Shown here: in pieces, positions 2,677 to 62,145 of the stretch | Layout of the letters: each line of letters begins with the position of its first letter | How positions within the stretch are numbered: the first letter of the stretch is position 1 | Program-made: the position numbers and the translations under genes | Source: Callorhinchus milii | Taxonomy: Eukaryota | NCBI RefSeq assembly: GCF_018977255.1 | Contig: NW_024704742.1 | Coordinates: 13,828,001 to 13,892,000, forward strand | Direction of reading: 5' to 3' | DNA length: 64,000 nt | The notes under the pieces: model-generated | What the model saw: only the letters and a program-made list of their open reading frames with translations | Told to the model about the DNA's origin: nothing | Databases searched by the model: none

Positions 2677-3023
2677 ATAAACAAAACCCAAAATACTGCA
2701 GATGCTGGAAATCTGATACAAAAACAGAAGTCGCTGGGAACGCTCAGCAGGTCAGGCAGCAACTATGGAGAAAGGAAAGTGAGTCAACGTTTCAGGTCCA
2801 TGACCCTTCATCAGAACTGGGGCATGTGGGAGGGAGAGGCTTTTAAGGTCTAATAGAGAAAGGGGAGGCAGAGCAAGGAAGACAAAGGAGAAAATGGGGT
2901 AGAGGCCAGGGGATGATGGGTTAAAGAGGTGTTAAAGATGCAAAACAAAGGGGCGGCAGGGGGGGTGGGGGGGGGGGGGGGGGATTTCAACAAAACAGGG
3001 GAATAGAGGGGTTAATAATGCAA
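2677..3023 (-). mobile_element. Penelope-like (PLE) short terminal-repeat element containing a hammerhead motif
   Basis: Homologous to 30140-30241, 45745-45890 and 61770-62145. Flanked by the 13-bp direct repeat ATAGTGAATTAGT (2664-2676 / 3024-3036). Confidence 0.75.
2782..2818 (-). ncRNA. Minimal type-I hammerhead ribozyme motif, core intact
   Basis: Minus strand reads AGTT-CTGATGA-A-GGGTC-ATG-GACCT-GAAA-CGTT-GACT: conserved cores, stem II, stem I AGUU/GACU, GUU triplet and palindromic AACGTT stem III. Confidence 0.75.
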
Positions 3024-3276
3024 ATAGTGAATTAGTTGTTGGCATATATTTGACTAAATAAAGGAAATGTGAACTGAATCATGCATCTTTTTATTGCTCC
3101 TCAAATCAAAAAAGCATTGACTCTTGTTCAGCTGGTTAAATAAATACATAAATATTAACAAAATGTAGACTGCATCTGATTATTCAGCTAATAAAATCCA
3201 CATTATGATGACAAACTGTACCATATAAACCCAGCTTCAACCCCCATCACCAATGAGGGTCTTTCAGAGAAGAGGA

Positions 3277-3470
3277 CCAACTATTTACATTTATATAGCA
3301 TCCTTCATGTAGGATAGCATCTCAGAGTGCTTTGCTCCGAGGTTTTAAGGTGGAACGAGGAGGGGTAGAAGGAGGGAGTTCCAGAGGTCAAGGGTATAGA
3401 TTCTGAAGGCTCAGCCACCGATAAGCCCGTGGATGGGGGGGAAGGGGAGGAGGGGCGCGCCTCAAGTCCG
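3277..3470 (-). mobile_element. Old L2 LINE 3' fragment
   Basis: Reverse complement of the L2 tail (catttatatagc) and of the 'ctctggaactccct' ORF2-end motif seen at 63590. Confidence 0.6.
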
Positions 3471-3794
3471 AGTTAAATATTTATTTTCCAGCATTGGTGA
3501 AATATGAAATGTACACTGCAATCAGCATACTTGAAAATCCATCTAGATTTTGGGGATTTCAGTGGAAATTCATAGTGGGTTCTTAACCACTTAAGTGGGA
3601 GCTGCATAGTAGCCAAAGGGTTAAGATGATGTGTAGTGCACTGGGGAGGGAGTCAGGAACAGCTGGCTGTGAAACAAGTAAACTGCAGGCAGAATGTAGT
3701 TTTTGAAGTTTTTGAAGCAAGAGTGTGAAAAATATGTAAGGAAAATACCTGTTTAATGACTATCTGAAAGAAGCTTTGTTGACCGTACTAATTC

Positions 3795-4187
3795 CAACTG
3801 ATTCACTATTTGCACTATTAAACCCTCTATTCCCCTGTTTTGTTGAAATCCCCCCGCCCCTTTGTTTTGCATTTTAACACCTCTTTAACCCATCATTAAC
3901 CCTCTTCCAGGCAGAGGGCGAAACCTTGGGCAAGTTTCCTTACTCCACACAGAGCCTAATAATAATCCCTCCAAAACCAAAAACAATAATAAATTGGTCA
4001 TTTTCAATCCATGACTGTTTGTGGGACATTGCTGTGCGCAATTGGCTGCCGCGTTTCGCCCACAAATATACACTCAATTCATTTTACAGTATATTCTGTG
4101 AAGCGCTTTGGGACATCCTCCCGACGTGAAAAGCACTATATCAAATGTAAGGATTATTATTATTATTATTATCATCCCCTGGCCTCT
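3795..4187 (+). repeat. Inverted partial copy of 2901-3038 (PLE fragment), interrupted by a SINE
   Basis: 3795-3896 and 4171-4187 are reverse complements of 2901-3038. Confidence 0.8.
3905..4171 (+). mobile_element. 5'-truncated young SINE
   Basis: Near-identical to 566-826, with an (ATT)n tail. Confidence 0.92.
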
Positions 4188-6924: not shown

Positions 6925-7287
6925 TTCTGAATTTATTATGCTTTGTTTTAGCTATGATGAGAGGAGGTATTTGAAAGGAATTGATGGGTTGGATAGCCTT
7001 CCCTCTGGTAGAGGGATCCGTTACAAGGAAGCATAGACTTAAAATCAGAACTAAGATAATGAGAACTGAGATCAGGAAGCATTTTTTCACCCTTAGGGTT
7101 AGAAGGTGTAGAATTAGAAGCTGTAGATAGTGGTGGAATGAATAGGGATTTTTAAAAGCGAGATGAGCAGATACTTGGATGGTAGAAGAAATAAAAGTTA
7201 GGGAAAGGATGGGACATTGGGATTAAAATATCTAATAAACTGGTGGACCAGGCTCGATGGGCTGAATGGCCTCCTCCTGTTTCTGTT
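6925..7287 (+). mobile_element. CR1-clade LINE 3' fragment
   Basis: Degenerate ORF2 C-terminus. 3' end gggctgaatggcctcctcctgtt resembles 54325-54350. Confidence 0.75.
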
Positions 7288-8239
7288 TTTCTTTGTTCCC
7301 ATTTCACTTCATGGCTGCTTGTGAGATTTTACTGTGCACAAAATATTTACCCGTTTGTCTACACAAAACAGTCACTGCACATGACTGCAATTACTGTGAA
7401 GTATTTTGAGACGCCTGGCCTGATAGATGCTGCATTAAAGCATGCAATTTTGTTTTATTGTCTAGATTTTTTGATTATCTAAATCTGTTCGAATACCCAG
7501 AACCTTCAAATCTGCTCTTAACCAGATGTTCACTCAGATCCTATCTAAAGGAATTAATCAATATAGTGTTAACTGCTTTTGCTAGGCGTCCCTTTTACAT
7601 ATCTGCAGGTCTGTGGATATATAAGAAAATGTTTGATTATTTGATCTTACTTGAGGCTTTGCCAGTATTGTGTTCATGTCCTTTAGTTTTGTGGTGGCCC
7701 ATTGACCCTTCATGTGAAGTTTGGTTTACAGTCTTTTTGGCTGGGCAAGTCTGTGCTGTTCAGGCTGTGACACTATCTTTGCTTTTCATAATATTAAGCC
7801 TGGTTCATAGTTTTTTGTCCATCATTTTTTCTCCAATGTAAACCAATTCAATGCTATGCACCCCTCGTAACTTGGGCTCTTATAACTACAGAGCATCTTT
7901 TCGATTGGGACACAGAATTTGTCTTGCTTTCAGCTTTTGTAGTTTCTGATTGGAACAAATGAGACTCGTGTTTCAGGGTCGAGGAAACCATATGATTCAT
8001 AAAACAACTGCTTTTTAATTAAAAAAATTAATTTGAGTAAATATGGCCAATTTCTTAAATTGGAGTATATACAATATATTGAGTAAACATTGAGAGAATT
8101 AAAGTTTGGAAGCCACCTAACCCAAAAAGTACTCTTTTTTGAAGTTCTAAAGTGATCATTTTTAAAACAATTAACTATTGTGTTCAGTCTGAATGAGTCT
8201 ATGCCTGACTAATAAGAGACCAGAGTGAATCCCAGGAAA

Positions 8240-8560
8240 TAGCAGCCTTTTTTTCTGGGTTTCAACCCTCTTGCCCTGCTCTTTGGAACTCCATCCTGGA
8301 GTCCCTACAACTTGCTTCTTCCCTCACCTCATTCAAGGTCCATCTCAAGACGTACCTCTTTGACCGGGCTTTCAGTCATCTTTCCCCTCCCCACCCCACC
8401 CCACTCAGCTTCCACTTTCAGCTTGGGTGTCCAGCCAGTAATGTTAAGCACTTTGGGACATCCTCAAAACCCTGCTAATTCCAACCCCCAGCTCAGGTGG
8501 AAATCCTTGTTGTTGATATCCTCCCAATGTGAAAGGCGCTGTATAAATGTAAATCTGTAA
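8240..8560 (+). mobile_element. L2 LINE 3' fragment
   Basis: ctttggaactcc...ttcaaggtccatctcaagacgtacctctttgacc, ending in the tail tgtgaaaggcgctgtataaatgtaa. Confidence 0.75.
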
Positions 8561-9524
8561 TGTTTTGAAACTGCTGCAGATTCAGTAAAATGAAATGGTC
8601 CACAACATACTTACTTGCCTCGTGGTCATAAATAAGTTGCTTCTTTTCTGTCTTTGTTCATTCTGATGCCCTGTTCCACTTTATCTTCATTTTTTTTGTC
8701 CCTGCGGTGGTATTCTTTTTTAAAATTTAAATTTAGCTCATTCCCTGATGCTTTCATGTGTCCTTGTTAATGTACTTTCTCAAAATCTATGCCACTTTGA
8801 AAACAATTGAAGGAAGATTTCCTGTATCAGATGTGACTTTCTCTTCAAAAGTAAAAAGCATGCCTTATTACTATTCCATTGCTAAAGCCATTGTAACTAA
8901 AGATAATGCTGTTGCCTATTATAAAATAATCTGAAAATTTGATGTATGTCTTTTAATTCAAGAGGATGGCTCAATGCGCTTTACAGGATTTTACTGACTG
9001 ATTTTCAAATCATAAGATTAATTTAGGGTATGTGGACTGTTTATTTCTCTAACCAACAATCCTTATTTATCTCTCAGAAATATGTAAGTGTTTGGCAAAT
9101 GAAAGGACTACTAGACTCTACTGGCACATGAAACACTAGTGACTATCTGGCTCCAAGTTTATGGTGGTTTCAGTAGTCCAGCTCCTGAGCTAGGTGTGTC
9201 CACAGAACTCCAGGGTCTTCCTGATACCAGCTAGTCTAGCTCATTGATGGTACTTGGAAGGACAGACCTGTCAGTGGTGGCATGGATTCTTCGCTCAGCT
9301 CCTGTTAAACTTGCACACCAAAGCCCTAATGGGTAGGTAGTACCAGGGAAGTAGAAACAAGAATCTCACTCAAATCCTCTATTGCATTCTTAGGCTGTCA
9401 CTTTATGAACTGATTTCAGTTCATGTATACAAAACAACTCAATCACGTAGAATTGTAGTAAATAAGAATAGAATAATGCTTGCATCTGTTATAGTGTCAT
9501 ATTTAAAACACAATGTCTCAATCC

Positions 9525-9662
9525 ACGATTGCTGTGCGCAATTGGCTGCCGTGTTTCACCCACAAAATATATGGCCATACAGTATATTCTGTGAAGTGCT
9601 ATGAGACGTCTCAAAGACATAAGGCGCCAAATCAAATGCAAGGATTATTAGTATTATTATTA
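9525..9662 (+). mobile_element. SINE 3' fragment
   Basis: gctgtgcgcaattggctgcc...gcaaggattatta. Confidence 0.85.
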
Positions 9663-10191
9663 AGTGCTACACACACTGATTTAGTTTGAAGTATAGTGAC
9701 TGTTAAACACAGCAGCTGATCTATTCCAGCTGCAACCTAAAACAGCAATGAGATAAATGGCCAAATAATTAGTTTTTGAATAAAGGAGGAATTGACCAAA
9801 GCAATTTAACAAAAAATCATAGCATAACATAACTAAAACATAAACTTCCCCTTTTCACTGAAGGTCAGAAAAGCTTTGATTCTGAATTCCATTACATTCA
9901 AAACTTTATTTTATGTTTTTCTTTCAGAAGTAGGTCGACCTGCTGTGCATTTCCACCACAACCTATTTTTTTCCCCGTCACTCTCCCAGATTTTCAGCAT
10001 TTGTAGTTTTTCTTTTTATCATTATTCTAGGAAGTACATTTGCCTTTGGCTGTTGCGACTGAGAAAATCCTGCTGTAAGGTTTCTGCTCTTGTTTTGTAT
10101 TCATCCCTATCCTGAATTGTTAGGCTTCATTGTTCAGTTTTCTGCCCAATTCAGTGTTTCACCTGTCCGATCTCTGATAACAGAAAACTGT

Positions 10192-10790
10192 GTCAGTCTG
10201 GAGCAGTGGCAGCACTCTCTCTTCTGGAGGTTATGGTTTCAAGCCCACAATGCAGTGCTGGGAGTGTGTTGGATTCTCGGAGATGCTGTCCTTCAGATGA
10301 AACATTAAACTGGAGTCCCATCTGCCTGTTCGGGTGTCTGTTAAAGATCCCATGGCACTAGACAAAAAGAGAAAGGAGGGAAGTCATTTCTCCTGGTTTC
10401 TTGTCCAACAATCACCCCAAATAAAATTGGCCACTCACTCCATGGCTGTTTTTGGGACTTTGCTGTGTGCAACTATTATAATCCTTACATTTGATATAGC
10501 GCCTTATCACATCTTCGAGACATTTCAAAGCACTTCACAGAATATACTGCAAAGTAAACTGACTGCATATTTTGTGGGAGAAAGTATGGCTGTAGATTCA
10601 GTAAAGTGAAACAAAATACACAGTCAATCCACTCTATAGTATATACTGTGAAGCACTTTGAGACGTCTCAACAATGTGAAAGGCGTTGTATCAAATGCAA
10701 GGTTTATTACTATTATATCCCATGAAGCACTTTGAGACATCTCAACAATGTGACAAGGCGCTATATCAAATGCAAGGATTATTATTAACT
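10192..10790. mobile_element. Cluster: SacSINE1-like DeuSINE (+), SINE tail (-) and two tandem SINE tails (+)
   Basis: tRNA-like head plus 'gtccttcagatgaaacattaaac...aaagatcccatggcacta' body to ~10473. Inverted tail at 10475-10595. Tails at 10615-10715 and 10722-10788. Confidence 0.75.
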
Positions 10791-11819
10791 GATGACAGTA
10801 AGACCTTAAATGTTTCAGATACAGAAAGCACTGGATCAATGGTCCATTTGACCATCTATTCAAACATTTATTTTCTCTGATGCCATAAAACTGGCCCAAA
10901 GTTGTTTTTAACAAAGTTGTTGTTAATCTCTTTGAAAGTTTATGATGAGTGAGGCATATATTTCAATCTCCTGCTACTTCCAAGTTGGATTGGGCTGTAC
11001 AAAGGATATGTCAACAGTGAATAACACATCAAAAAAAATTAAAATTAATGTGCATTCAGCTCCTGTGAAGGGAAGAGTCTATTTTAAATAAAACCCATTC
11101 TTTTGTATAGACCATTTTTTCCAATGCAATGAACAAAATAATATTCCTTGCTCATAAATTGTCTCTTTTATTTTAAAAAGTCTGCAATATGTACTGAAGG
11201 TAGTTCCTGTCATTGTTTGGAACTGTCAGCACACAGCTTGACACTGAACAGGACTCTCTTGCTCCCCACTTTTTAAAGCACATCCTAAAAGCCTGCTGTG
11301 ATAACAATCAATGCTCCCATTCTGTGAAATCATGATAGCTGATAGCTTTTGTGCTGTGGTTGTTAACCCTACTGGTTCTGAATAAATGCCGCATTCATCC
11401 ACTAGCCCACTAAATATGTTTTGTGTATGTCCCTGGGGAGAATATAGAAAATTTAGTTTGAGAATTGGTGTGTTCAATTATTATGATGCAGCACATATGT
11501 CCTATTTCAGAATGATTGCAAGGCAGTAATTTAATCATAAACCACAGAGCATCCTATGATTGCTTCATGAATTGCATCATTCAATTCCCTGGAATGTGTT
11601 ATTTAATATTTTTGCTTTATTCAACTTTAGATCATGTCTTTTGTTACTGATAATCAGTGTCAGTGTGAATGCTGGATGTTGTATTCAATGTACAGTTACT
11701 GGGGGACTGAAGCATCCTCAATGCTGGTTCCTTGAGAAATATTCTAAAGAAATATGCAAATCAAATATGGAGGAGATATTACATAGCAAATAATAGACAA
11801 TAGGTAATTAAAAACACTA

Positions 11820-12250
11820 CATAATAATCCTTGTATTTCATTTAGCACCTTATCACAAGATCAGAGCATCACAACATCAGAAGGGGTTCACAATATTTTC
11901 CGCAACATGTGGTGACTTTGTATTTGCAGTCAAATGCAACAGTCAATTTGAGCACAGCCATGTCCCACACACAGCCATGAAGTAAATTATCAGTTACATC
12001 CAGGGATTGTTAGACAAGACATGGGAGAAACTCTCTTTGCTTTTCGAATGGTGCCATGGGATCTTTAACAAGTAATTTAGGAAAATATTGCAAGTCACGC
12101 ATCTCTAACAATGTTTCTCTTCCCCAAGGGTTGCACTGAAGTGCCAACCTAAACTATGAGCTCAAATGGGGCTGGAACCCCCAGCCAACATGGGGCTGGA
12201 ACCCCCAACCTTCTCACTCAGAAAGTACGAGCTGTTGAGTTAGCCTAACA
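11820..12250 (-). mobile_element. Old SacSINE1-like DeuSINE
   Basis: Reverse complement of tail, Deu domain (tcccacacacagccatgaag), gtgccatgggatcttt and head (aacccccaaccttctcactcaga). Contains a 24-bp internal tandem duplication at ~12166-12210. Confidence 0.7.
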
Positions 12251-13756
12251 CCCAAGAGATTAATAATTATATTAGAACCAGATAATTTATTTATGGTTTC
12301 TTAAGGTGTTTTACATTTGCTCAATTGCCAGTTTGTGTCACTGGCTATAATTCTACTTGCTTGGCTATTTCCTTTTTCAACACATAAAATTTTGATTGTT
12401 ATGTGCTCCAGAAGCACCAGAATCAGTGCAAGTTGTTTTGTTAGTCATCGGTGTTGTGAACACTCCTGATTTAACAGTATTCAGAGTTATCCAAATGTTT
12501 AACAGCAACCAACAAGCCTTGTGAATCAACCAACAAACCTTGCAAGGAATAACACAACACAGTATCAGTGACATAACTGGCCGAAAAGTATAACAAGATT
12601 ACTTTTTGCAGAATAAAAATTGTGATTTTGATGTCAGTCAAATGAATGCCATTTTATATATTACACGCCACCAAAATCTATGACAAAAGAACTTGAATTC
12701 TATATTCTGTACATTTTTATATATTTTTTGGAATGTTCTGACAAAGGATTAATCAATCTCAAAAGTTAAAAGCAACATGAATTATTGACCATATTTTTGA
12801 AAATTGTAATTTTGAAAAAAAATCAACTTAGTTGTAGATTTCTAAATGGCATTTTTTCAGTCATCAATCAATCTTCATGCTGGAAAAACATTTATTTAGA
12901 GAGAAAATGTCACTGACATGAAACCTTTTATCCTTCCTGCGTTTACCATTCAACATTACACATCGAAAGGTAATGGACAAGTGAGAGAAAGAATTGTAGG
13001 ACCCTTTCATGGATTGATGTCCAGAACCAGCCTATTTAGTACCTATTTAGTAGATCTGCCAAGTTACACTTTCCAGCAACAGTCACTGGGGTTCTGTGAA
13101 AATATACTTTTTCTGTGTGTCTCTCAGTGAAATAAATAACCTCAGATTTATTATATTAATAGGTTTTCTATCAGTCACTGTCTCTCTTTTTCTCCCCTTT
13201 CTCCTAATTTTTTTTTGAATCTGATGGTTTGGCCTCAGGATTAGCTAAACTAGTTAATTGAGTCCTCTGTAAAGCCTAGAACTGTGGTGTTCTTTCTTCA
13301 TTGGTGATAGCTTACGACCCAACCCCCATTGGTGTCTGACTGGTAGTGGGGTGTTTCTTGAGACAAGTGGCAATGGAAACAGAAGAGCCACAAAATAAAA
13401 AGGCAGATGTGAATAAAATACAAGTTATAAAAGTTTGAATAATCATTTTTGAAATCAGGAACAAAAATAATCTGAACTTTAAGAACGTTTTATTTTTGAT
13501 GTTATAAATCATTTACAGTTTTGATCCATTTATTCTTGCAATGCTTGAAATCCTTATTTTAAGGAAATGATTTTGTATGAAATAATCCATATAAATCTCC
13601 TCGGCTGCCTCTCCAGCTGCAGTGTCTACCATAGTTCCTGCTGAGGTGCTTGCAGCAGGATACTGAGCAACACAGCGCTAAAGTTATTTCCTTAATTCTG
13701 TGGTGTGCAGCAGACAAGCCCTCTTGTCTTTAGAAGGAAGGTCCTAAGTAGAATTT

Positions 13757-13993
13757 AATAATAATCTTTGCATTTGATATAGACATTCATGGATTCAGTG
13801 ATTTTTTTTGAAGGATTATTATCCCTGGAAAGTGATCTGCCAATCGTCTAACAACCGGGTTCCTACTTACTGCTAGGTAAACAAAAGTGCATGGAATAAG
13901 AAACTTGCCTAATCTTTTGCCCTGCCGGGGAATTGAATCCGTGTCCTCTCGCTTGCGAGGTGAGTGCTTAACCATTACGTTATAGGACTCCAT
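13757..13993 (-). mobile_element. tRNA SINE, long variant, internally deleted
   Basis: Head (ggactcca...gaattgaatcc) plus the ~60-bp segment 'tttacctagcagtaagtaggaacccgg'. Deu domain mostly missing. Confidence 0.8.
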
Positions 13994-14864
13994 TTGAGAT
14001 CCTAAGTAATAGTTGAGGGCACTTGTAGCCTTTGCTACACTGGTGGTGCAGTCGTATTGACTCAATCTGCAGGCCTTTGTGGAGGAGAAGGCACATCTCA
14101 GTCACCTTGATTAGTTTCAGCTCCATCACGTTACGTCCAGGTAGCTGACATTAGATTCACTGCCTGTGGTAGTTGCTTTGAGTCATTTGCTTTCAGTTAT
14201 CATCTGCACTTCCAGACCAGTCTCTCCTTCTCTTCCTACTGATTTACTGAGATATACCTGTCAACAACTGCCACACCCATGCACTCAGGCACAAATCCCC
14301 TCAGTTATTCACTGCTCTCCCTGCTGTGGTGGTAATTCGACATTCTTCCAATTCATTCCTCAGTGACTATAGATCTGACCCAAGTTAAATATTCACTTTT
14401 CAAAGTGTTTCTCAGCAGTGTAACGCTGAAAGAGTCTTCCTGCATCTTTATTTTATGTTTTTCACTCTTTCCTTTCCAAGTCCCACACCTACCTCAAGAG
14501 ATACCCCATGGCATGTAGGTAATGCTCAGTTTTCGATCATTTTAACACAATCTTACCAGATGAATTGGCCTCTATTTTACCCTTTCACTAAAGGATTTTA
14601 GCTTCAGTTGCTGAGGGCAAGTATGCTGAGCGTAGCGCTGAATAGAAATGATATGCTGTCATCTCCTGACCTTTTGCTTGCTTGTACACATCTAGGTTTT
14701 TGCTAACATTTGCTTGCCCATGAATATCATGGCCCATAGGAAGAAGAATAAATTGGTATGACGGGCTTTCAGGAAAGTAAAGTACCAGAATTTAAATGAC
14801 AAAGGTCTAACTAAGAAGTGAAAACGGTTTCTTAATAATATATTATTTCTTAAAAATATAACCT

Positions 14865-15256
14865 GTGCACAATTGCCTACTGAGTTTCACCCACAAACTA
14901 CAGTCAATCCACTGTACAATATATTCTGTGAAGCTTTTAGAGATGTCTCAACAAGGTAATAAGAAGCTATATCAAATGCAAAGATTATTCCAGGCAGGGC
15001 GAAACCTTGGGAAAGTTTCCTTACTCCACACACCTAATAATAATCCCTCCAAAACCAAAAACAATAATAAAAAAAATTGGTCATTTTCAATCTATGACTG
15101 TTTGTGGGACATTGCTGTGCGCAATTGGCTGCCGTGTTTGCCCACAAATATACAGTCAATTCACTTTACAGTGTGTTCTGTGAAGCGCTTTGGGACGTCC
15201 TTCCGACGTGAAAAGCGCTATATCAAATGCAAGGATTATTATTATTATTATTGTTA
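14865..15256 (+). mobile_element. Old SINE tail followed directly by a 5'-truncated young SINE
   Basis: Old tail ends gcaaagattat at ~14987. The young copy starts ttccaggcagggcg and ends in (ATT)n. Confidence 0.9.
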
Positions 15257-16469
15257 ATTATGAAGATTGCAGTTTCACCCTATGTATTTGCTAAAACTCA
15301 GGAATGTGTTACTGATCTTCCACTCATTTCTTTTCAGAATATGGATCATTTTAAATTTAGTCATGGGAAATGGGTTAAGGTATAAGACAGAGAAATGGGT
15401 AAATGGGTAAAGCTGTAACTTTAGGAAATGTGTAAGCTGGGAAAACAGTGAATTTTTTTTCCTTTCAACTGATGCACAGGCTGTAAAGTAAGGAAGGATT
15501 AATTCCCCTTGTGAATGAATGGAACTGGGTACCCAGGATACAAAAATAAAATTAGTAATATAGCCTAAGGCTTATAGCACGTCACATAATAATACGTACA
15601 GAGTACAAACACATAGGAGCAGGTAGACTGATTACAGGGTCCAGAAAGATTAGGTATCAATTACTGATGATACTCTGAAAATCAATTAAGAGTTCAGAAG
15701 ATGATGGGAGATACATTATGTGTCAGTATGTTCCATTAACAAAGGGTCTAAGCTCTTTATTTTAAGGACTTGTAAATCAATATACGAATAGCAGATAAAC
15801 CTTCTGAGGTGAAGAAGGTGTTACAGACAATCTGAACTATCAAAAGTAGCAGCATTTTAAGTGGCCCCCACAAGGGTCACATGCTGATCCTAAATCTGTT
15901 CCCTCAACTAGTGTTTAATCAAGGACTATTTTTCATGCAATAGGAGCCATCGTGGTTCTCAGGTATTCTTTAAAAATATATTTTTGTTACTAAGCCTGTC
16001 TGTGGTCAATATGTAAAGCCCCTTTTCTGTAATTTACGTGAATTTGTAACTCATAGTAATCAGGTCACAGAAGTTGCTCATTGTTTGATCCATGTGAAAT
16101 GGATGGTAGGTAATTGTCAGGAGCTGAGCATCTCTACCTAATACTAGCAGATTGTTTAGATTATTGACCACTGACTGTAGGAAAAATGAGATCATAGCAC
16201 AATGATTTCTGTCAGTTGCAGAAAAGGCCTTTGACCAGGAAGGGTGATTGTATCAAAGATGTGCGAAGACTTTTATGTGTTTGTAGAAAAAATGAGACCA
16301 TTGATTTCTGTAATTCACATTCTGAACATGCCTTTGACCAGGAAGGGTGATTGTATCTCAGATGCTTTATATTTGGGGAGAACTTTTCTGTGGTTTGATC
16401 CTGATCCCATGCTTGAGCCTGAGACTGACACCAGAACTTGTTTTCTCCCCTTTTTAATTAAATGTGAAG

Positions 16470-16680
16470 CTCAGCAATACAGAGCAGAGCTAGGTCAAGC
16501 CTCTGCCAGTACTGATCTCAACCTTGATGGCAGCAAGACACCGAGTATCCTCTGAGGCCCAGGGCTACAGAGGAAAAATATAGTCAGGGTTCCTGCTTCT
16601 GATCACTTTTTAGTAATTCCTGCTGAGAAATGAGTGTCAGCTGAGAACAGGATGGACTGTTATGGCCCTTTGGTTAATGC
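16470..16680 (+). mobile_element. Ancient SINE fragment, tentatively AmnSINE2-like
   Basis: Motif gaggaaaaat..cagggttcctgcttctgatcact..agtaattcctgctg. Related 3' parts at 18680-18860 and 58668-58782. Family name is from recall and unverified. Confidence 0.45.
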
Positions 16681-18129
16681 TGCACATAATGTATAATAAT
16701 AATATATTTATTTATATCTCTGAGCCGTGCAGAATTCTACTAGTTTTATTGAGCAAAACAATAGAAAGTACAGTATATTTTAATTGGGTGCTTAAAAAAA
16801 GGAACCGATTCCAAGGGTACATATATATACATGTTTAAAAATAAACATAGGATAGGTACTTTAATTATCATGCTGTCTGTGTGGATTCACGGAAAACATT
16901 ATTCACAAAAGGTTAATTAGTTCATGAATTAAAGATACCATTAAGCCACCTGAACTCATTAATGGTGCAATTAAAGGTGTTTATTCTATTAATAATGTGT
17001 TGATCAGAGTAAATATGAATTTTCTGTGTATGTGAAATACTGTTTTTTTCCATTTGTTTGAAAGAGCGCTACCAAAATTAAAACAAAAACATCCCCAATC
17101 ATTGTTTGAGATCTCTTACAAGGATTCATAGTGACAACTAGTGACTGACAGTCCAATTTACCAACAGAATCACAGAAATTCGGTGGCTCAATTTGATATT
17201 TGATGGATCAGAGAGGCAAAGATTCCAGTGGTAGAAGAAACAGCATTAACATTTTGGTCTAACACAGGTTTAGGGATTTAAGTGTCTCCTGACATTGTTA
17301 TTCATTCACAGGAAGCATTACTAGTTTTTGAATTTAAAGCTCAAGATTTTTATATTTGGATCCCAGATACCTGGGACTGTGGTGATGTGTCACATTGTGC
17401 TGCATTCCAGAAATACGATTGTAGCATTCTGGAATTAAATGATATCCAGTTACATTTACTGCATTGCTTATCACAGCTGGGTGGATATGAATATGGTACT
17501 AAAATATGCATTACAACCCAACATAAAATTACAAGATGTTCAATTCCATTTCACTAACCATATAGAAGTAACAGATATAGGACAAAATGAGGAGCATGAT
17601 AAGTCAATTGCAAAAGTAATAGTCTTAGCACTGAATTGCATTGAAATCGCGTTTCTGTTGAATAATGGTGATAAAATAATAGCCTTTTTTAAGACAATAA
17701 CTGGATTTAGAAGGTTACATTTTGTAACCTCTACATTTTACTTTTGATAGTTTCCACCCACTATGGTGATCTTTGATATTCATTGGCATGGTATTGAAAT
17801 ATTCCCAAAGAGATGTTGTATGTAGCTTAGTTCTGAAGAAGACCTCAGTTAGAAAATTCATTAATGTATTGATTCAAAACCATTAAGATTCTAAAGGTGA
17901 GATCATGCCACATTTTCAAAGTAAATTCTCTCCATGTTGCAATGGCCTTTCAGTACCAAAGCAAAAAAAGAAAACTGTTTGGGGAAACAAATGTGAGAGA
18001 GCATTTATTGATGTGCAACCTGTATTTGAAAAACAAAATATGGCATTTGCACATCAGCACTAATTTCTGCTTCCCATTTGCAACTGGAATTACAAATGAA
18101 ATCCACTAAAAAATTACAATTCTGAAGAT

Positions 18130-18615
18130 TCATGCTTCCTTTCTGACTGATTTCCCCAGCTCAACCACCCATAAAATCCAACTGATTCAATACACCACTT
18201 CCCGCATTCTCACCCATACCAAACTCCCCCACCACCGCCCCAAACCCTGCCAGGCTCTATTGACTCCTTCTTGTAGAATGGATCGATTTCAAGATCCTAA
18301 CACTTACTTGAAAATTACTTCACTCCCAAGCACCTCCCTACATCTCCAACTTGCTTAATCCAAATTCCCCTACCCACCCTCTTCACTCAGCTGTCTTCTA
18401 TATGTTCCTCATCCCTCTGTTCCACCATCGGCGGCCGTACTTTCAGCCTCTACACCCCAAAACTATGGAACTCTGCCTTGCCCCCTCCTTGCCCATCTTC
18501 AGATTGCATCTGAAGATGCTTTCTCTTTGACCGTGCTTACTGTCACCTACCCTCGCAACATCAAGGGCTCCGAAATGCTACTTGTACAAAAGGCATTATA
18601 TAAAAGCAAGTTTGC
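18130..18615 (+). mobile_element. L2 LINE 3' fragment (degenerate ORF2 end + tail)
   Basis: ggatcgatttcaagatcc (RIDFKI) and tccaccatcggcggccgtactttcagc, homologous to 63300-63680. Confidence 0.8.
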
Positions 18616-19794
18616 ATAGGCAAAAATAGCAACTAATCACCAGAGATCCATGATCTTGACTGCTCTCCTAAACTCTCTGCCATGAGGACCAGGTGTTTTC
18701 TGTGATGCTTCTCCACAGTCAAATAGCAAGTTTAAACTCTCCTCCTACGCTTGCATGGAAAGAACCTGTACTTGGGTGAATTCCAAGTATTTCTGGAACA
18801 ATGCCTCAGCAGGACATGCCTGGATTCTGTGGAGAAGAGGAGGAAAAAATGGGAGAATCAGAAACATGCCAGCCTGTCCATTTATTCATCAGTTAAACAG
18901 CCTATTTACAATTAAATAATATTGGTGCTGCTATTATTTGCCTTGAGGCTAGAAATCCTCCGTAATTAAGTCATTGCTGGCACCCGGTGTTCATCGCATG
19001 TTGGACATTTAATTGGAGAAAACTCACCAAGGTTTCCTGCTATGTTCAGCCAACAGGACACTTCTAATGCCTGTTATCTCAGTATGTATCGCTTGGCCTG
19101 ATGGTTATTATCGCAGCAGATGGTGGAAGGATTTTGTTCCCTGTCCCAGCGGTGCTTGCTGTTGGAACATTAGGATGTAGCTTCACAGATTTACTGCAAA
19201 ACTGGTTTGTCCTTTGAGCTGCATGATATCTCTGCTTTTATCAGTCTGAAAATTAATCTTAGCAGAAGCACTCCACTCACTTAATGTATGCTGCTTATCA
19301 AAACCTCATGATTACCGTTAGATTTATCATCCTCCAAAAATGCTTTTTTCTTGAGCAGTTTCTAATGGATCCTGTGTGTTTGTGTTTTAACACACAAATG
19401 TACATGTTTCATTAAGATCTCCTCAATGACATCTGAGAAAAGTAACCACATTGCACAAGCTGGTTCTACAAATCTTACTTTTTTACAATGTCAGGACATT
19501 CAATTTTTTTAATATAATTACACTTGTGATTTTGGCTCAAGGTTTTACTTGATTTTGAAAAAAAAATGTCATTTCAAATTAGTTTCTTTAAAAAGTGGCT
19601 GAGGGCATCAACAATTTGTTTTCAAGGCTGGCTGAAGTTCTTGGCAAAGCTCATTTTATGTTAGAAGACCGCAGAGGTTTGGATGAATGTTTAGTCCCTC
19701 ACAGCATGTGCATCTTGAAGATTACAAATCAAAAGACAATTTTGGTTTGTGAAACCATTCGCAGGCAGTGAGACAAATTTCTTTCAGATCTGGG

Positions 19795-20110
19795 CAAAAT
19801 GTTGGGTAAGTTTCCTTACATGGCTTTTGTTTATCTAGTAGTAAGTAGGAACCCGGTTGTTGGTCGATTGGCAGATTGCTTTTTCGGGGTAATAATCCCT
19901 TAAACAACAAATAAATAATAAATATAATAATAATTTGATCAATCAATCCATGACTGTTTGTGGGACACTGCTGTGCGCAATTGGCTACCGTGTTTCGCCC
20001 ACAAAATATACAGTCAATTCACTCTACAGTATATTCTGTGAAGCGTTTTGAGTGATCCAGAAGAAGTGATACGGCTATATCAAATGCAAGAATTATTATT
20101 ATATTATAAT
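19795..20110 (+). mobile_element. tRNA SINE, long variant, 5'-truncated
   Basis: CORE-like segment, ~60-bp long-variant segment, Deu-like domain and tail. Confidence 0.85.
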
Positions 20111-21289
20111 TGTATCTACAGTTCAGCAAATACTTAAATAGAGCCTTAACTTTGAGGTCGGTTTTCTTTAAATTTGTTCAAGAACTTCACAAAAAAGGCT
20201 TCAAAGTTAATACTGAATTCAACAATTTGCTAAATCCTAAACACTCTAAAATGCTACATTGATAGAATAAATTTAGACGCAGATGGAATTTCTCCTACTG
20301 AGTAGTGAATTGTCTAATATTCTGATTAATTCGCTAATGTTACAGAATTTGTCGCTGTGTACTTATAAAGAACTGCATTGCGATATTACATGTCTAATTT
20401 CATTAACACTGAGTGAATGGAGCAGAATAATACCATATGTGAATAGAAAAAAGTCCCTTTGGGCCACTGGAGCTATTCATAACATCAGAGGTTTCTCAAA
20501 AATAATAAATGTTAAACATCAAGGAAACTATTGATGCTGAATGTTCTTAATCATACCTTAAGAAGGCGGCACAGCCGGCACAGACACCATGGCCCGAATG
20601 GCCTCCTTCTGTGCTGTCTAATTCTATGATTCTACCTTTTGTTGTTGTGGAGGTTGTCCATTGTCTCGTACGTTTTGCTCAAGAATACTGCAGACTGAGG
20701 TCTTGCTGCCTTGAAAGCATTGTTATGCCCTAAGGCAACAGCAGCTGCAATTCATAATCAGAGCACCTACATTGCAATGTGTGCCCTACCTGAAACTTCA
20801 ACCAAGGATCCAGAAAGGATGTTTTGAATGCAAAGTTCATTTTGAGTTTGATGCATACCACGTGACAGATGGCATTATCCTGTTCTTTACAGGGCAGTTA
20901 AAAGGAACCTGCTCAGAGGACATGAATCAATTGATTAAAGCGATTAAAGTAATCGAAGTTCTGGTGAAAGGTCAACCTGTATTCTACCTTTTGCAAAAAA
21001 AAAGTTAAGAAAATGAATGGAACTGAGATGAGCAGTTGGTGTAATAGTTTGGAAAGACAGCTGCAGCTTTATTAAAGTCTTAACCCTTACCCTTTTTCCC
21101 CTTAACCCATAGAGCGCCTATTGAGATGTTTGTTTCTGTAGGCCAACCTGTTCCATACATTTTCAGCTTGAATACTGCAACACTGAGAAAATAAAAATGT
21201 TACAGTAAGGAAACTATTCAATTATATAAGTAGTTTTACCATTGTAATATTAAATCATAGTTATACTCTTGTAATATTAAACTATAGTT

Positions 21290-30241: not shown

Positions 30242-30255
30242 TGCACATGGTGTAA

Positions 30256-38915: not shown

Positions 38916-39069
38916 AACTCTTCAGGATGAGATAAGCAAGGTGTATTCTTCCAGGAAAAGAAAGTAGTCAGGCTCACCATACCAGACAAATGGATATTTC
39001 CACAGTGTTAAGCAATATGGTGGATTTCCACATATATAAGTTATCTGGCTGACCAAAAAATATCTGTTC

Positions 39070-44462: not shown

Positions 44463-45274
44463 TGAGCACTTGGTGAAAATGAAATACTTCTTCAAGTGGC
44501 TGAGGTGTAGCACAAGCTAGAACATTTGGGGTGTAACTATTGATGATTCCCCAAATTTCCTCAGCTTGTGATGTGTGTAAATAGGATGAAAGCTATACAA
44601 ATAGTATAGTTACTATACTGTAGTTAGTTTAAACTGATTTTCAAAATGTTCTTGTTTACCTGCCTCAACAATCATATGAACTGTATATAACTTGTAAAAT
44701 AACATTCATGTTTATATTTAATTTTGCACAGCTGTAATTTAAGCATTGTGAGATTCTGCCCCGTGTGAAGGGAGCTATATAAATTCAAGTTGTTGTTGTT
44801 GACTTTAAACAATGAACCTCTGTGCGCTCCATGCTTTTTTTGATGTAGGTGACATGCTACTTTCTTCCATTTGGCAAATTCACTGAATTTATGTACTTAT
44901 AAATAAAGGCAATGCAATTTTAAACATTAGCTGATTAAAATTTAAAATTGCATGATGTTCATTATATAAATGGAAAAGGACTAATTTACTAAACTTGTTA
45001 AACAGCATTGAAAAGGGCTTAGCCCACATTGACAAATTTGCTACAAATAATAGAGTGCAAAAAGCAATAGAAGTCCAAAGTTATTTAGATATTTTGGGGG
45101 AATAAAGTACCCTTATGTGTTTTAGGGTTACCAGTTTTGTGGTACATACAATTTTATTTAACTATTGATGTGCTTAGCATCCAAGTATTTTAACATCCAC
45201 CATACAGACCTTATTTTTTAAGAATAAAAAGTTCTGTATCAATCTTTACTTTGTCCCATATCTCTTCTTGTCAC

Positions 45275-46240
<966 letters not shown>

Positions 46241-46884: not shown

Positions 46885-47207
46885 GTGGAGTCCTGTAGCT
46901 CAGTGGTTAGAGCACTCGCTTTGCAAGTGAGAGACCTGAGTTCAATTCCAGGCAGAGGGCGAAACCTTGGGCAAGTTTCCTTACTCCACACGCCTAATAA
47001 TAATCCCTCCAAAAAAACAAAACAATAATAAATTGGTCATTTTCAATCCATGACTGTTTGTGGGACATTGCTGTGCGCAATTGGCTGCCGCGTTCGCCCA
47101 CAAATATACAGTCAATTCACTTTACAGTGTGTCTGTGAAGCGCTTTGGGACGTCCTCCCGACGTGAAAAGCGCTATATCAAATGCAAGGATTATTATTAT
47201 TATTATT
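46885..47207 (+). mobile_element. Full-length young tRNA SINE
   Basis: Near-identical to 505-826, with intact A and B boxes. Confidence 0.93.
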
Positions 47208-54915: not shown

Positions 54916-54966
54916 ATATGCTATTTTGGGTGGCCTTAGGCGGCACGGGCTGCAGAGCAGGCACAA

Positions 54967-55286
54967 GGAGTCCTGTAGCTCAGTGGTTAGAGCACTCGCT
55001 TTGCAAGCGAGAGACCTGAATTCAATTCCAGGCAGGGCGAAACCTTGGGCAAGTTTCCTTACTCCACACGCCTAATAATAATCCCTCCAAAACCAAAAAC
55101 AATAATAAATTGGTCATTTTCAATCTACGACTGTTTGTGGGACATTGCTGTGTGCAATTGGCTGCTGCATTCGCCCTCAAAAAAGTCAATTCACTTTACA
55201 GTATATTCTGTGAAGCGCTTTGGGACATCTAGAAGACGTGAAAAGCGCTATACCAAATGCAAGGATTATTATTATTATTATTATTA
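54967..55286 (+). mobile_element. Full-length young tRNA SINE
   Basis: Near-identical to 505-826. Confidence 0.92.
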
Positions 55287-58794: not shown

Positions 58795-59132
58795 ATAATA
58801 ATATAATAATCCTTGCATTTGATATAGCACCTTATCACATCGTTGAGACGTCTCAAAGCGCTTCACAGAATATACTGTAAAGAGATTTGATTGTATATTT
58901 TGTGGGCGAAATGTGACAACCAATTGCGCACAGCAGTGTCCCACAAACAGTCATGGATTGAGTGACCAAATAATAATTTTTATTTGGAGGGATTATTATG
59001 CCCAGAAAAGGGATCCGCCAATCGACTAACAACTGGATTCCTACTTACTGCTAGGTAAACAGAGGCATGTGGAGTAAGGAAACCTGCCCAATGTTTCGCC
59101 CTGCCTGGGAATCGAACCCAGGTCCTCTCGCT
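58795..59132 (-). mobile_element. tRNA SINE, long variant (head partly lost)
   Basis: B box GTTCGATTCC, CORE-like segment with ~60 extra bp, Deu-like domain and tail. Confidence 0.9.
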
Positions 59133-59269
59133 ACATTTCGATTTAGTTTACAGTATATTTTGTGAAGCGCTTTGAGATGTCTCAAAACATGATAAGGCCC
59201 TACATCAAATTCAAAGATTATTACTATGTTTCAACGGGCACTCTTTTCCATATCTTGCAGCTGATATTA

Positions 59270-59600
59270 TAATAATAAATAATAATCCTTACATTTGATA
59301 TAGAGCATTTCATGTCAGGAGGATGTCTCAAAGTGATTCACGGAAAATTCTGCAAAGTGTAGGCGAACATAGCAAACAATTTGCACACAGCAATGTCCCA
59401 CAAACAGCCATGAAGTAAATGTCTAATTTTCTCTAGGAGAATGTTGGCCAAGATACCAGAAAAAAAACTCCCTTCTGCTTTTGAATAGCGACACCATAAA
59501 TCTTTAACTTGAACAGAATATCGGCCCTCGGTTAAACATCTCATGCAAAGGACAACACCTGCACATAGCGCTCTCCCAGCACTGCACTGGAGCATCAGCT
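59270..59600 (-). mobile_element. SacSINE1-like DeuSINE, 3' three-quarters
   Basis: Reverse complement of tail, Deu domain and ggccctcggttaaacatctc. Confidence 0.8.
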
Positions 59601-61769
59601 TACGTTTGTCATGTCACTAACGGATGTGTTAATTATCTAGTTTAGATCCAAATTGACTTTGAATGGTGTTCAACTTTGTGTTCTTTTATGTGTTGTGCCA
59701 GATAATGTTTAATGAAATACACATGCTGCAGTGATGTTGTTCTATAATTTAAATTTGGATTCTTGTTATTTTGGTTAATTGCATTCCTGTATCATGTTAC
59801 TGAATGTTTGAACATTAAACTGTTTAAATCAATGTAACTGAATATAAGCTTCATTAAGAGCAGCTTACTGTCTTGATATCCTTGTGAGGGATGTCAGCCT
59901 GTACTAATACTACTGCACTCAACCAATATTGAGCTGGAAAATATTGGAAGTATCTGTTGTAAATATAGGTCTTGTCTACCAATGACAACAAAAATCAATC
60001 AGAAAAAGTAACCCTGCTCTCAACAACAACAACAGCAGAATGCTCTCCTATCTAATGTTCTCCAAAGAAATCCTTCAAAAGCAATCTAGTAATCAATCTC
60101 ATTGGGAAAAAATGTCTTTATTCTAACCTATCGTTCACCTACAAAAACACACAGTCACTACACTTTACTGTATATCCTGTGAAGGCGCTTTGACAAATTT
60201 TAACATGAGAGATGCTATCTATAACAAATGTAAGGATTAATAATAGTGTTTCTCCAACACGCCTGTATTGGCCATTGGGTAAGCAATAATGGGGTGAAAT
60301 TACGATGTTGTGTTCTGTTAATGGACAACAACGGTGACTTTTGATAGTTGATACATCAATTACTCCACAGATGTGATCTGCCTCCCTTCACCATGACTAC
60401 GCAATAATCATACCGAAATGTTGAAATTACGCTGAAACACATATTGGACTTGTGTCGCATGGATCATGGCATGCATTGCCGGTTAGAAGCTTTATTAAAG
60501 GAAAAAGGTAAAGCCAGTATCCCTTTGATTGTCAATTTAATGTTGTGTGATCTGTATACTGGAAGGCCAATGCATGGCAGCTCACATTACTTCATCATTT
60601 AGTGAAATTAATAGTTTGCTGATCTGGTTCTCAGGAATCCTGGAAAATGTTGACTCCTGCTTGTACACCTTTTACATGCACCATGTATCATGGTAGGTTT
60701 GAAATTTTCTTTGTGAGTTTGGTCAGACTGACAAAAGATTCAGTAAATGTGCCTGCAACAAATGTAATTTTTCTCAGAAGCACTTTGGATGGTTACCGCT
60801 TCCCAGGATACTCATAAGTAACACTGATCTGAATAGCTTCTTATTTGAAAACCGTTTGGATTTTGTTTGAGATGAAAGTGCACACCATATGATTTGTTCT
60901 ATTTCACTGAGAGGTGAAAATTGCAATATATCTTAAGAGATTTGGGGGTAGAAATTCCAACTGGGTCTAGATTTGCTCTAAAAACATACACTTTCAGAAT
61001 GTCTGGGATTTATCAAATTCTGAAACACAGTCCTTATTTTGAAGCCATCCTCCCAGTCAACCTCCCACCCACACCTTCCTTGTCCTCCACCCACTTGATT
61101 GCAATCCCCAGCTTGGTTGCAAATTATTGACTGCCCAGTCAATAATAATAATAAATAATAAATAAATCTTTGCATTTGATATAATGCCTTATCACTTCTT
61201 CGAGACATCTCATAGAAAATACTATAAAATTGACCATATTTTTGTGGAATGTCCTCCTGATGTAAAAGGAGCGATATAAATGTGATTTGTTGTTTGTTGT
61301 TAATGCACCTTATCCCTCTGCCCAGTGTATCTCCTGAAGGAAGATTCTGCAAAGTTTTTTCCTAGTTTTAAAAGTAATCAAGCAAAACTCTACAAGAACA
61401 GCCTAAATTTAAATCCACATTAATCATCTCTGACTGACAGCTTTCTGTTTCGTGACACATCTATGCTCCAGGCATCTTAGGAACAGTCATATTCTACAAA
61501 GTACCTCATCATCACTATCTATACTTATCTTCATTATCTTCAGTCCAGTTCCTAAGCAGATATTTATCCAGCTCTTTTTTTCCCCTCAAGATGTTAATTG
61601 GCATTGACAATCGGTTGTAAATGTGCATGTCGGAAAAGCAGAAATGATGCCTTAGCTCTGGAAAACGTGTCTCTGCATCTGAAGTGAGTGAAATTAAGAA
61701 TTGAGATGTGACAAAGGCATGGACCAGAGTTTCAGAGGCTTTTGGGGGAGAGCTTACCTTACCCCCTCC

Positions 61770-62145
61770 CCCTCTTTCTGTTACCAGAAGAGTTATCTTC
61801 TGTTATCATTACAATCATCACCCAAGACACTCTTTGTCTCTCTTGGTGTGTTGCCTGTTCTGCACTATTAACACCTCTTCTCCCCAGTTTTGTTTCAACC
61901 CAGCACCCACTTTTGTTTTACACCACTATCACCTCTTTAACCCATAAGCTAACACATTCTCCCCTTTGTCTTTTTTTTTGTCTTATTTGTCTTCCATGTC
62001 CTGTTTCCCCCTCTCAACATGCCTCAGTTCTGATGAAGGATCGTGGACCTGAAATGTTGACTCACTTTCTTTTCTCCATGGATGCTGCCTGACCTGCTGA
62101 GCTTTCCCAGCTCTCTCTGTTTCTGTTCCAGCTTTACAGTTCTCT
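61770..62145 (+). mobile_element. Penelope-like element, longest copy; hammerhead at 62026-62062 with a C>T change
   Basis: Homologous to the reverse complement of 2690-3020. Motif AGTT-CTGATGA-AGGATC-GTG-GACCT-GAAA-TGTT-GACT. Confidence 0.72.

Follow-up and report, generated by a model that had tools for sequence, protein, structure and literature searches.

The four hammerhead motifs in the window (a stretch of 64,000 nucleotides of Callorhinchus milii DNA) are very probably minimal type I hammerhead ribozymes (min-HHRs) from the 3′ end of an old, high-copy family of endonuclease-bearing Penelope-like elements (PLEs). They do not represent a new kind of ribozyme, min-HHRs having been known in PLEs since 2014. 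The genomic copies of the family show that many of the RNAs used as templates for insertion had their start right at helix I of the hammerhead, on its 5′ edge, and almost none at the ribozyme cut site.

The motifs are located at 2782–2818 on the minus strand (copy 1) and at 30140–30178, 45756–45791 and 62026–62062 on the plus strand (copies 2 to 4). All four retain the CTGAYGA and GAAA boxes, and AACGTT is kept in copies 1 and 3 and lost in copies 2 (AACCTT) and 4 (AATGTT); in these respects the sequence reads as claimed in a preliminary description of this DNA. A blastn comparison of copy 2 with the window gives matches of 91% over 101 nt (E = 2e-36), 82% over 105 nt (E = 4e-25) and 82% over 99 nt (E = 2e-22), and an nhmmer profile of 30 genomic tails finds matches in the window with E values of 5e-96, 2e-42, 6e-38 and 2e-34, and no fifth hammerhead-bearing copy there. 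Because approximately 100–290 nt of sequence is shared around the motifs, they are not chance matches, and the four are homologous copies of one repeat. They are spaced 15–27 kb apart, use both strands, and none is in tandem.

Copies 1, 3 and 4 are plain 5′-truncated tails; copy 2 is a member of a short class with its start at the helix I edge. Copy 1 (2670–2999, minus strand) is a 5′-truncated PLE 3′ end approximately 330 nt long with no coding part; nhmmer matches it from 2956 to 2670 (E = 5e-96), and blastn to longer genomic copies extends it to 2999. Its hammerhead is the only one in the window in which core, palindrome and stems are all intact, with C3 at 2814, G8 at 2809, G12 at 2793 and a predicted cut between 2786 and 2785. 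An A/T-rich box, CTTAAAAG (2840–2847, minus strand), lies about 30 nt 5′ of the start point of many genomic copies; it is identified from the sequence and the family profile, and may have a promoter role. We note that the loose contig ends at 2817/2818 and 2718–2720, from four runs presumed to be RNA, are junctions already known from DNA copies and carry no independent weight.

The short unit of copy 2 (30140–30241, plus strand, C3 at 30145) runs from the 5′ edge of helix I to past the T-run. Head-on to it lies an inverted piece of about 40 nt from the extreme 3′ “tail” (30100–30139, minus strand, by blastn; 30132–30090, minus strand, by nhmmer), and the whole is enclosed by a 14-bp target-site duplication (left, 30086–30099; right, 30242–30255; plus strand). 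The core of copy 2 is intact and its palindrome is lost (ACCU). Copy 3 (45726–45899, plus strand, C3 at 45760), identified by nhmmer and from its sequence, is a 5′-truncated tail of the second, B-like subfamily, in which a deletion damages stem II. Copy 4 (61750–62139, plus strand, C3 at 62030), found by nhmmer, tblastn and blastn, extends into the region following the endonuclease domain; its palindrome is lost (AUGU) and its stem II has one mismatch. A small fragment of the same PLE family, from the part immediately 5′ of the tail, lies at 3811–3896 (plus strand; nhmmer and blastn) and carries no hammerhead. The 22 ORFs of at least 110 amino acids in the window have, by eye, the appearance of repeat or low-complexity products.

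The motif is laid out as CUGAYGA, one unpaired A, a 5-bp helix II with a G-C closing pair, GAAA, a loopless ACGU, U17 and a 4-bp helix I, and so has every trait given for PLE min-HHRs in PMC4209133. The family profile and each of the four window copies have the core boxes CUGANGA and GAAA, U16.1 and a base other than G at position 17; the four copies also have the unpaired A, which is changed in only 1 of 99 genomic copies. Helix I (AGUU/GACU) has four pairs, one of them G.U, and is predicted in the minimum-energy fold of intact copies. The helix III hairpin is absent, and the profile, like copies 1 and 3, has the palindromic ACGU (15.2–16.2). Two subfamilies differ in a compensatory manner at the closing pair of helix II (10.1/11.1), which is G-C in subfamily A and A-U in subfamily B, and also at 2.1/1.1 (U.G against U-A). 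In copies 1 and 4 the closing pair is G.U after a C-to-T change. Stem II had been described as varying between the window copies yet largely staying paired; the variation that keeps it paired is mainly C-to-T change that leaves G.U wobbles, and not compensation. Searches with the Rfam hammerhead models, both at the gathering threshold and with E values of up to 10 allowed, give no match in the window, and a 3.3-kb locus searched at the looser setting gives none either. Self-cleavage of the motif after H17 is putative, and related min-HHRs are weak in vitro (PMC4209133).

The repeat is the last 300 nt or so (pseudo-LTR region plus “tail”) of a canonical PLE family with reverse transcriptase (RT) and GIY-YIG endonuclease. 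Longer genomic copies contain a 470-aa open frame, approximately 200 nt 5′ of the hammerhead and on the same strand, which aligns over 421 residues (47% identity, E = 2e-129) to a protein that scores for both RVT_1 and GIY-YIG in Pfam. The alignment corresponds to residues 384–800 of that protein and includes YIDD and the GIY-YIG stretch; the closest named relatives are shark and ray proteins, with 56–63% identity. The frame's own Pfam score for GIY-YIG (E = 0.13) is under the cut-off, and six shorter broken ORF pieces gave no Pfam scores. In the element, the hammerhead follows the RT-EN frame at about 200 nt, with some 120 nt left to the 3′ end, and the typical PLE traits are present: frequent 5′ truncation, inverted 5′-truncated partners and a 30–40 nt “tail” extension. 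An ATG-led open frame in the tail extends to the tail end, and enters unrelated repeats in all five copies examined.

No RT or GIY-YIG part was found in the window by tblastn of the 470-aa frame, whose sole match there (61750–61868) is to residues 430–470, a non-domain stretch; this bears out the preliminary statement that no such ORF accompanies the copies. The autonomous partner that it proposed to look for is found in part, as the RT and GIY-YIG frame 5′ of the tail, but among the 80 PLE matches listed every one longer than 250 residues has in-frame stops, and therefore no intact autonomous copy was seen. No full-length element with a 5′ pseudo-LTR was found in the genomic loci examined, and two copies that reach the N-terminal region have no tail upstream within the examined flanking DNA.

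Pattern counts put the genome copy number at approximately 7,000–25,000. A strict pattern matches 1288 times in the whole genome, against none in the reversed control, and a generic pattern 5751 times, against 334 in the control, in agreement with the earlier proposal of a PLE-related hammerhead family present in thousands of copies. That proposal was made on the condition that the density in the window is typical, which it is not: the window is several-fold richer in copies than the genome average, with two strict matches against 0.083 expected and two generic matches against 0.37 expected. The strand counts are even (654/634 for the strict pattern, 2288/2208, and 2875/2876 for the generic pattern).

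The decay of the dispersed copies was examined in 100 genomic copies picked irrespective of the motif. Changes affect G8 in 23 of 100 copies, G12 in 26 of 99, and the other CpG sites of the motif in 18–32%. The core is intact in 40 of the 100 copies, the core and ACGU together in 22, and everything in 9, copy 1 included. The stems do not covary among copies, 828 of 890 cells being paired compared with 827 ± 1.9 in shuffles. Decay after insertion is neutral-like and fastest at CpG; we note that two catalytic bases, G8 and G12, fall at CpG sites, as does the ACGU palindrome. Core A/U sites are changed less often, in 11 of 799 cells; the figure for the flanks is 172 of 4480, and old CpG sites hidden there may be a partial cause of the difference. 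The few changes at core A/U sites, together with the compensatory pair change between subfamilies A and B, suggest that the source lineage was under constraint.

The lower variability of the core A/U positions would also be expected had the host taken over dispersed copies, for example for intron cutting or transcript regulation. We regard such a take-over as extremely improbable, given that G8 and G12 decay (23–26%) like the other CpG sites of the motif, that pairing is no better than in shuffled copies, that only 9 of 100 copies are intact and that the strands are evenly used. The suggestion that copies could cleave host introns, including by trans-dimerisation, is not supported: few genomic copies keep all features (9 of 100), the one intact copy in the window lies on the strand opposite to the other three, and published min-HHRs are poor even as dimers (PMC4209133) or, in the part of PMC11167929 available to us, protein-dependent.

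The ends of the copies show how they were made. Among 30 + 30 genomic copies, the position of the 5′ end varies and the 3′ end is sharp. The genome contains 571 head-to-head pairs, against none in the control, and duplications of 10–14 bp bound pairs and short units in four of five examined. Together, the sharp 3′ end, the variable 5′ truncation, the duplications and the inverted pairs show that copies were made by target-primed reverse transcription from the 3′ end. Nested insertion was considered as the origin of the head-to-head pairs and was rejected, because whole pairs lie within one target duplication.

In 49 distinct head-to-head pairs, 33 of the 98 arms begin within 5 nt of the helix I edge (p = 3e-16 against a uniform distribution), and 17 of these start at a single base. 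Only 2 of the 98 start at the ribozyme cut site, which is no excess. The genome has 2555 occurrences of the 14-mer at the helix I edge, of which only 854 have the upstream CCAG, compared with an expected retention of about 0.81; about half of the genomic hammerhead copies form a discrete short class beginning at this edge. We have found no report, in the papers on PLE min-HHRs that we consulted, of 5′ ends that cluster at the helix I edge and are lacking at the cut site, and neither this family nor this genome is named there, although the supplements of PMC4209133 and 10.64898/2026.07.22.740005 may list species or families.

We tentatively propose, as a reading that is plausible but falls short of probable, that the hammerhead marks the first nucleotide of the element RNA, that hammerhead-plus-tail RNAs of approximately 100–150 nt were the commonest templates, and that cut RNA was rarely copied. 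The promoter would lie in the pseudo-LTR, its A/T box near −30 and its start at CAGTT, and would initiate transcription exactly at helix I, on the hammerhead's first nucleotide; as no full-length element with a 5′ pseudo-LTR was found, this promoter is unproven and is something we infer. The near absence of arms beginning at the cut site in the 49 pairs would suggest that hammerhead-cut RNA is rarely copied back into the genome and is not the usual template. The ribozyme would be relevant solely in the element's own RNA, where, lacking helix III, it would need a second copy, pairing through ACGU, and would probably depend on an element-encoded protein. If the proposed reading is true, the ribozyme would serve to take the capped leader off the element RNA or to hold templates back, and would not be the processing step from which templates come.

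The pile-up at the helix I edge could also have arisen with no transcription start, by recombination to solo pseudo-LTRs, from a 3′ splice site, or from a 5′–3′ exonuclease or reverse transcriptase stopping at the folded hammerhead. The upstream sequence is pyrimidine-rich and ends in CAG, an intron of Drosophila virilis Penelope stops at helix I, at its 5′ end (PMC4209133), and the modal first base is G or T and not the A expected of an initiator (the mode falls on the G that directly follows this A in CAGTT). Against this, copies starting at the edge share no upstream exon, whole pairs within one target duplication fit template ends rather than later recombination, and a polymerase block would be expected 3′ of a structure, not 5′. 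We consider this alternative a serious one, albeit somewhat doubtful.

The preliminary description favoured solo, retrozyme-like, non-autonomous PLE derivatives. For such units, tandem copies would be transcribed and the transcripts cut by two hammerheads, circularised and copied back by a PLE enzyme. The PLE origin stands, as does a discrete short class that makes up about half of the hammerhead copies and shares one start, and animal retrozymes have been argued to derive from PLE pseudo-LTRs (10.64898/2026.07.22.740005, in the part accessible to us). The window copies, however, lie far apart and form no tandem, those genomic pairs that were examined have an inverted, head-to-head arrangement rather than a direct one, and copies end at the helix I edge and hardly ever at the cut site, where a processed or circular monomer would begin. 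Furthermore, the short units are single insertions with target duplications, and in longer copies the tail is continuous with the RT and EN frame, so that it is the 3′ end of a coding family and not a separate element. We therefore consider retrozyme-like units very unlikely.

The same lack of ends at the cut site raises the question of whether the motif cleaves at all, or is a hammerhead look-alike at the end of the PLE RNA, conserved for protein binding or for structure. It has no Rfam match, no helix III and a helix I of only 4 bp, and, in the available part of PMC11167929, ribozyme mutants of lizard Poseidon show normal insertion in vitro and the cut site is not the end of any RNA-seq read. 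However, the family consensus has every core nucleotide, as do both subfamilies, between which helix II shows a compensatory change; an equivalent design cleaves weakly in other species (PMC4209133), and the Poseidon hammerhead cleaves when protein is present, according to the same part of PMC11167929. A motif that never cleaves is thus unlikely.

The thousands of ancient insertions constitute a natural record of which RNAs were reverse transcribed. The distribution of ends in the sample examined agrees with the one biochemical study, in which Poseidon ribozyme mutants show normal insertion (PMC11167929, in part). The helix-I-edge ends in the 49 pairs provide a concrete, testable idea of where the element RNA starts. 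For annotation, these motifs should be masked as PLE tails and not recorded as host ribozymes.

The catalytic core is shared with Rfam Hammerhead_1 (RF00163) and with the other Rfam hammerheads, whereas the motif here lacks the helix III hairpin and the canonical type I loop–loop contacts. The HDV-like ribozymes that R2 and L1Tc elements carry at their 5′ ends are alike in placing a self-cleaving motif at the start of a retroelement RNA (PMC6765202), but they cut at their own 5′ edge and thereby define the RNA start, whereas a hammerhead cuts near its 3′ side, and a start at helix I is therefore not ribozyme-made. The non-LTR retrozymes of animals (Cervera and de la Pena 2020, PMC7229834; Li et al. 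2026), as described in the portions available to us, likewise carry a type I hammerhead whose helix III is weak, do not code for protein, are related to PLE pseudo-LTRs and are often present as solitary “monomer” copies; they form direct tandem arrays that give circular RNAs, whereas the copies here are dispersed or inverted and, when longer, continuous with a coding PLE.

The Anolis Poseidon element PAc (Frangieh et al. 2024, PMC11167929) offers several parallels in the part of the report that we could consult. Both strands are primed in PAc, which fits the head-to-head pairs; internal initiation leaves a 30–40 nt “tail” signature, comparable to the two classes of 3′ end and the inverted tail of copy 2; and insertion needs no ribozyme cutting, which fits the 2 of 98 ends at the cut site. 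The PAc ORF begins inside the hammerhead, whereas here the hammerhead lies about 200 nt past the RT-EN frame.

Cleavage of min-HHRs as dimers is attributed to Lunse, Weinberg and Breaker in the available part of a review (PMC6765202), and PLE min-HHRs cleave poorly even as dimers (PMC4209133). Compared with the metazoan PLE min-HHRs (Cervera and de la Pena 2014, PMC4209133), the motif differs in helix II, which is 5 bp here and 7–8 bp in Schistosoma, and shares the topology of type I, the two boxes CUGANGA and GAAA, the unpaired base that follows A9, G10.1–C11.1, a palindromic ACGU with no helix III, a helix I of 4–5 bp, a site near the 3′ end of an RT and GIY-YIG element, and an occurrence as thousands of mostly solitary copies, with opposite-strand pairs 100–700 bp apart.

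Direct reading of the sequence found all four hammerhead sites of the preliminary description, at 2782–2818 (−), 30140–30178 (+), 45756–45791 (+) and 62026–62062 (+) (copies 1–4), each with CTGAYGA, a short hairpin and GAAA. The palindrome AACGTT is, as had been stated, present in two copies (1 and 3) and lost in two, where copy 2 reads AACCTT and copy 4 AATGTT. Approximately 100–290 nt of common sequence surrounds each motif, and the motifs are therefore not chance matches. In a blastn search of the window, copy 2 matched the other three at 82–91% identity (E 2e-22 to 2e-36), and a family profile built from 30 genomic copies recovered all four (E 2e-34 to 5e-96), with no fifth hammerhead-bearing copy in the window. 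A family fragment without a hammerhead lies at 3811–3896 (+), some 800 nt from copy 1 and oppositely oriented. The profile matches 42 nt of this fragment (3855–3896) and also an inverted 43-nt piece that adjoins copy 2. Copies 1, 3 and 4 are ordinary 5′-truncated tails, the tail being the last ~300 nt of a Penelope-like element (PLE).

In the 991.5 Mb assembly containing the window, 4560 first-look candidates were returned for a 271-nt query around copy 1; in the best 30 of these, the 3′ end is sharp and the upstream reach variable. An upstream walk with a 597-nt query added 1429 candidates, again with variable 5′ ends. Longer genomic copies contain disrupted frames that include RT-like and GIY-YIG-like stretches, and at one locus a 470-aa open frame on the same strand ends ~200 nt before the hammerhead. 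Pfam scores this frame weakly (GIY-YIG, E 0.13); its database relatives carry RVT_1 and GIY-YIG, and one of them aligns with it over 421 residues at 47% identity (E 2e-129), spanning YIDD and the GIY-YIG stretch. Among named proteins, those of sharks and rays are nearest to the frame, at 56–63% identity. The architecture is that of a canonical endonuclease-bearing PLE, with the hammerhead within its 3′ non-coding end. The units had been described as retrozyme-like PLE derivatives: a PLE-derived, high-copy hammerhead family is what we find, and the retrozyme part of that description falls away. No coding part accompanies the window copies, as had been noted, the RT and EN parts being absent from the window. 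Of the autonomous PLE partner, for which a search had been suggested, the frame aligning with an RT and GIY-YIG protein was found, but no intact copy: with a shark PLE protein as query there were 9308 first-look candidates in the genome and, among the matches listed, all those longer than 250 residues have in-frame stops.

The minimal hammerhead of PLE pseudo-LTRs was defined by Cervera and de la Pena 2014 (PMC4209133), and the family profile has all the traits listed for it: CUGACGA, an unpaired A, GGGUC-GUG-GACCC, GAAA, CG, UU and then GACU, which pairs back with AGUU. The Rfam hammerhead models do not report the motif, even at E up to 10, which fits its lack of helix III. Without that helix, activity could arise only via pairing of ACGU with a second copy.

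Across the whole genome, a strict family pattern gave 1288 matches (654 + 634) against none in the reversed control, and a generic pattern (CTGANGA, 10–22 nt, GAAACGTY) gave 5751 against 334; for a 21-mer of the tail the count is 4496 (control 0). When 100 copies were picked by flanking anchors only, the strict pattern fitted 18 and the generic 22, and from these rates the copies holding the hammerhead region number roughly 7,000–25,000. The expectation of many thousands of units is thus borne out, but its premise, that the density in the window is typical, is not: against expectations of 0.083 strict and 0.37 generic matches, the window has two of each, and is several-fold richer than the genome average.

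Decay after insertion was followed in the first 100 of 412 genome matches to two anchors flanking the motif, a choice that avoids selecting copies by the motif itself, aligned to the profile. The four CpG dinucleotides of the motif are its most heavily changed sites; N7 is changed in 32/99 copies, G8 in 23/100 (22 to A), G12 in 26/99, C15.2 in 19/100 and G16.2 in 28/99. The core is intact in 40/100 copies, the core and palindrome in 22/100, and all features including both stems in 9/100, copy 1 being one of these. Non-CpG C/G sites of the core change as frequently as C/G sites in the flanks (19/199 versus 337/4345). Core A/U sites are altered less than flank A/T (11/799 versus 172/4480; p = 2e-4). 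Over nine stem pairs, one-sided changes comprise 61 that keep the pair (mostly as G·U) and 59 that break it, and of the double changes four pair and three do not. Paired cells number 828/890, compared to 827 ± 1.9 on shuffling partners, and there is therefore no covariation among copies in these nine pairs in the 100-copy sample. The impression that stem II stays paired is due to C-to-T wobble.

Of the first 100 generic matches, about 20 come from a second subfamily (B, the other source lineage being A), to which copy 3 also belongs. This subfamily has A-U for G-C at 10.1/11.1, the loop AUC for GUG, and A for G at 1.1, which turns U·G into U-A. On these sequences, constraint is visible between source lineages only; our reading is that the motif was maintained in active elements and decays freely after insertion. 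The suggested cleavage of host introns finds no support, with most copies dead and the sole intact window copy, copy 1, on the strand opposite the other three.

The window also contains five closely similar tRNA-like sequences with the anticodon loop UGC, at 509–580 (+), 27965–28037 (−), 42498–42569 (−), 46893–46955 (+) and 54969–55040 (+). None adjoins a hammerhead copy, and most probably these are not tRNA genes but the heads of a tRNA-derived SINE family. A low-complexity tract at 43917–44520 is probably a degenerate microsatellite of the CA/CCA type; its open frames on both strands give long runs of His/Pro/Thr or Gly/Val/Trp. By eye, a 223-aa open frame at 63069–63740 (+) resembles the C-terminal end of a reverse transcriptase ORF of LINE type, with similar short pieces at 38974–39345 (−) and 34454–34810 (−). 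In the tail itself, an ATG ~24 nt past the predicted cut site (after GUU) opens a frame of 25 residues in five copies that reaches the element's 3′ end (for example 2670–2762 (−) and 62084–62139 (+)). Since the ORF of the lizard Poseidon element begins inside the hammerhead, this ATG may open the ORF of the following unit; in those five copies the frame runs on into unrelated DNA.

At the loci examined, truncated copies often start just before CTGA (11/39 within nine positions), and several of these are head-to-head palindromes. Genome-wide, 571 loci have two outward-facing tails 10–160 nt apart (control 0), and at 26 head-to-head loci the hammerhead starts abut within 0–8 nt. Taking the first 50 pairs (L175–L224), minus L202, which duplicates the structure of L201, we extended each arm (one tail of a pair) against the family profile to place its start. 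In the resulting 49 pairs, 33/98 arms start within the five bases CAGTT at the edge of helix I, 17 of them at the G (p = 3e-16 versus a uniform spread); at least one arm does so in 28/49 pairs and both in five. Starts no more than two bases from the predicted cut site account for only 2/98 arms. For the 14-mer that begins at the second T of CAGTT there are 2555 occurrences (control 13), but only 854 with upstream CCAG; the decay table predicts CCAG retention of ~0.81, and therefore only some four in ten of these copies extend further upstream. A minor group (11/98 arms) starts within the AACGTT palindrome or next to it; cDNA ends at this point would be self-complementary, and two of them could anneal.

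A single 10–14 bp target duplication encloses each of two pairs and two short units, among them copy 2 (14 bp, 30086–30099 and 30242–30255); a fifth case examined has none. Nested insertion was rejected for these pairs and short units, since one target duplication each implies one insertion event. The 3′ ends fall into two classes, after a run of five T or ~45 nt beyond (in the window, 2718–2720 (−) and 30241 (+)), and in some insertions, copy 2 and locus L020 among them, the extra 45 nt stands inverted at the opposite end.

Two cDNAs growing toward each other would place tails outward and heads inward. Heads can meet at one base only if many RNA templates ended there, and we infer that the RNA 5′ end lies at the first base of helix I. 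Transcription start would be its simplest cause: subfamily A has an A/T-rich box, CTTAAAAG, ~30 nt upstream of the start, copy 3 has a similar box at equal distance, and the start itself, CCAGTTC, is initiator-like. Alternatively, a 3′ splice site, solo pseudo-LTRs or a nuclease stop, rather than a promoter, might set this end; a pyrimidine tract and CAG end at the helix I edge, as a splice site would have it, and in the Drosophila virilis element an intron was reported to end at this edge (PMC4209133). Copy ends are nearly absent at the cut site, which suggests that RNA cut by the ribozyme seldom served as a template.

The family is a further instance of the PLE hammerhead type already described. 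In the PLE literature searched, we did not find the clustering of starts at the first base of the ribozyme or their scarcity at the cut site described, and this 5′-end pattern is the only part of our results for which no published counterpart was found. Published PLE biology accounts for most of the end pattern: passages in PMC11167929 and PMC8557442 have both target strands nicked and extended and RT initiating inside the RNA, leaving a 30–40 nt ‘tail’ at one end, a signature that the two 3′-end classes and the inverted 45 nt resemble. The rarity of cut-site ends likewise matches the lizard element, for which a passage in PMC11167929 reports that ribozyme mutants insert normally and that no reads end at the cut site.
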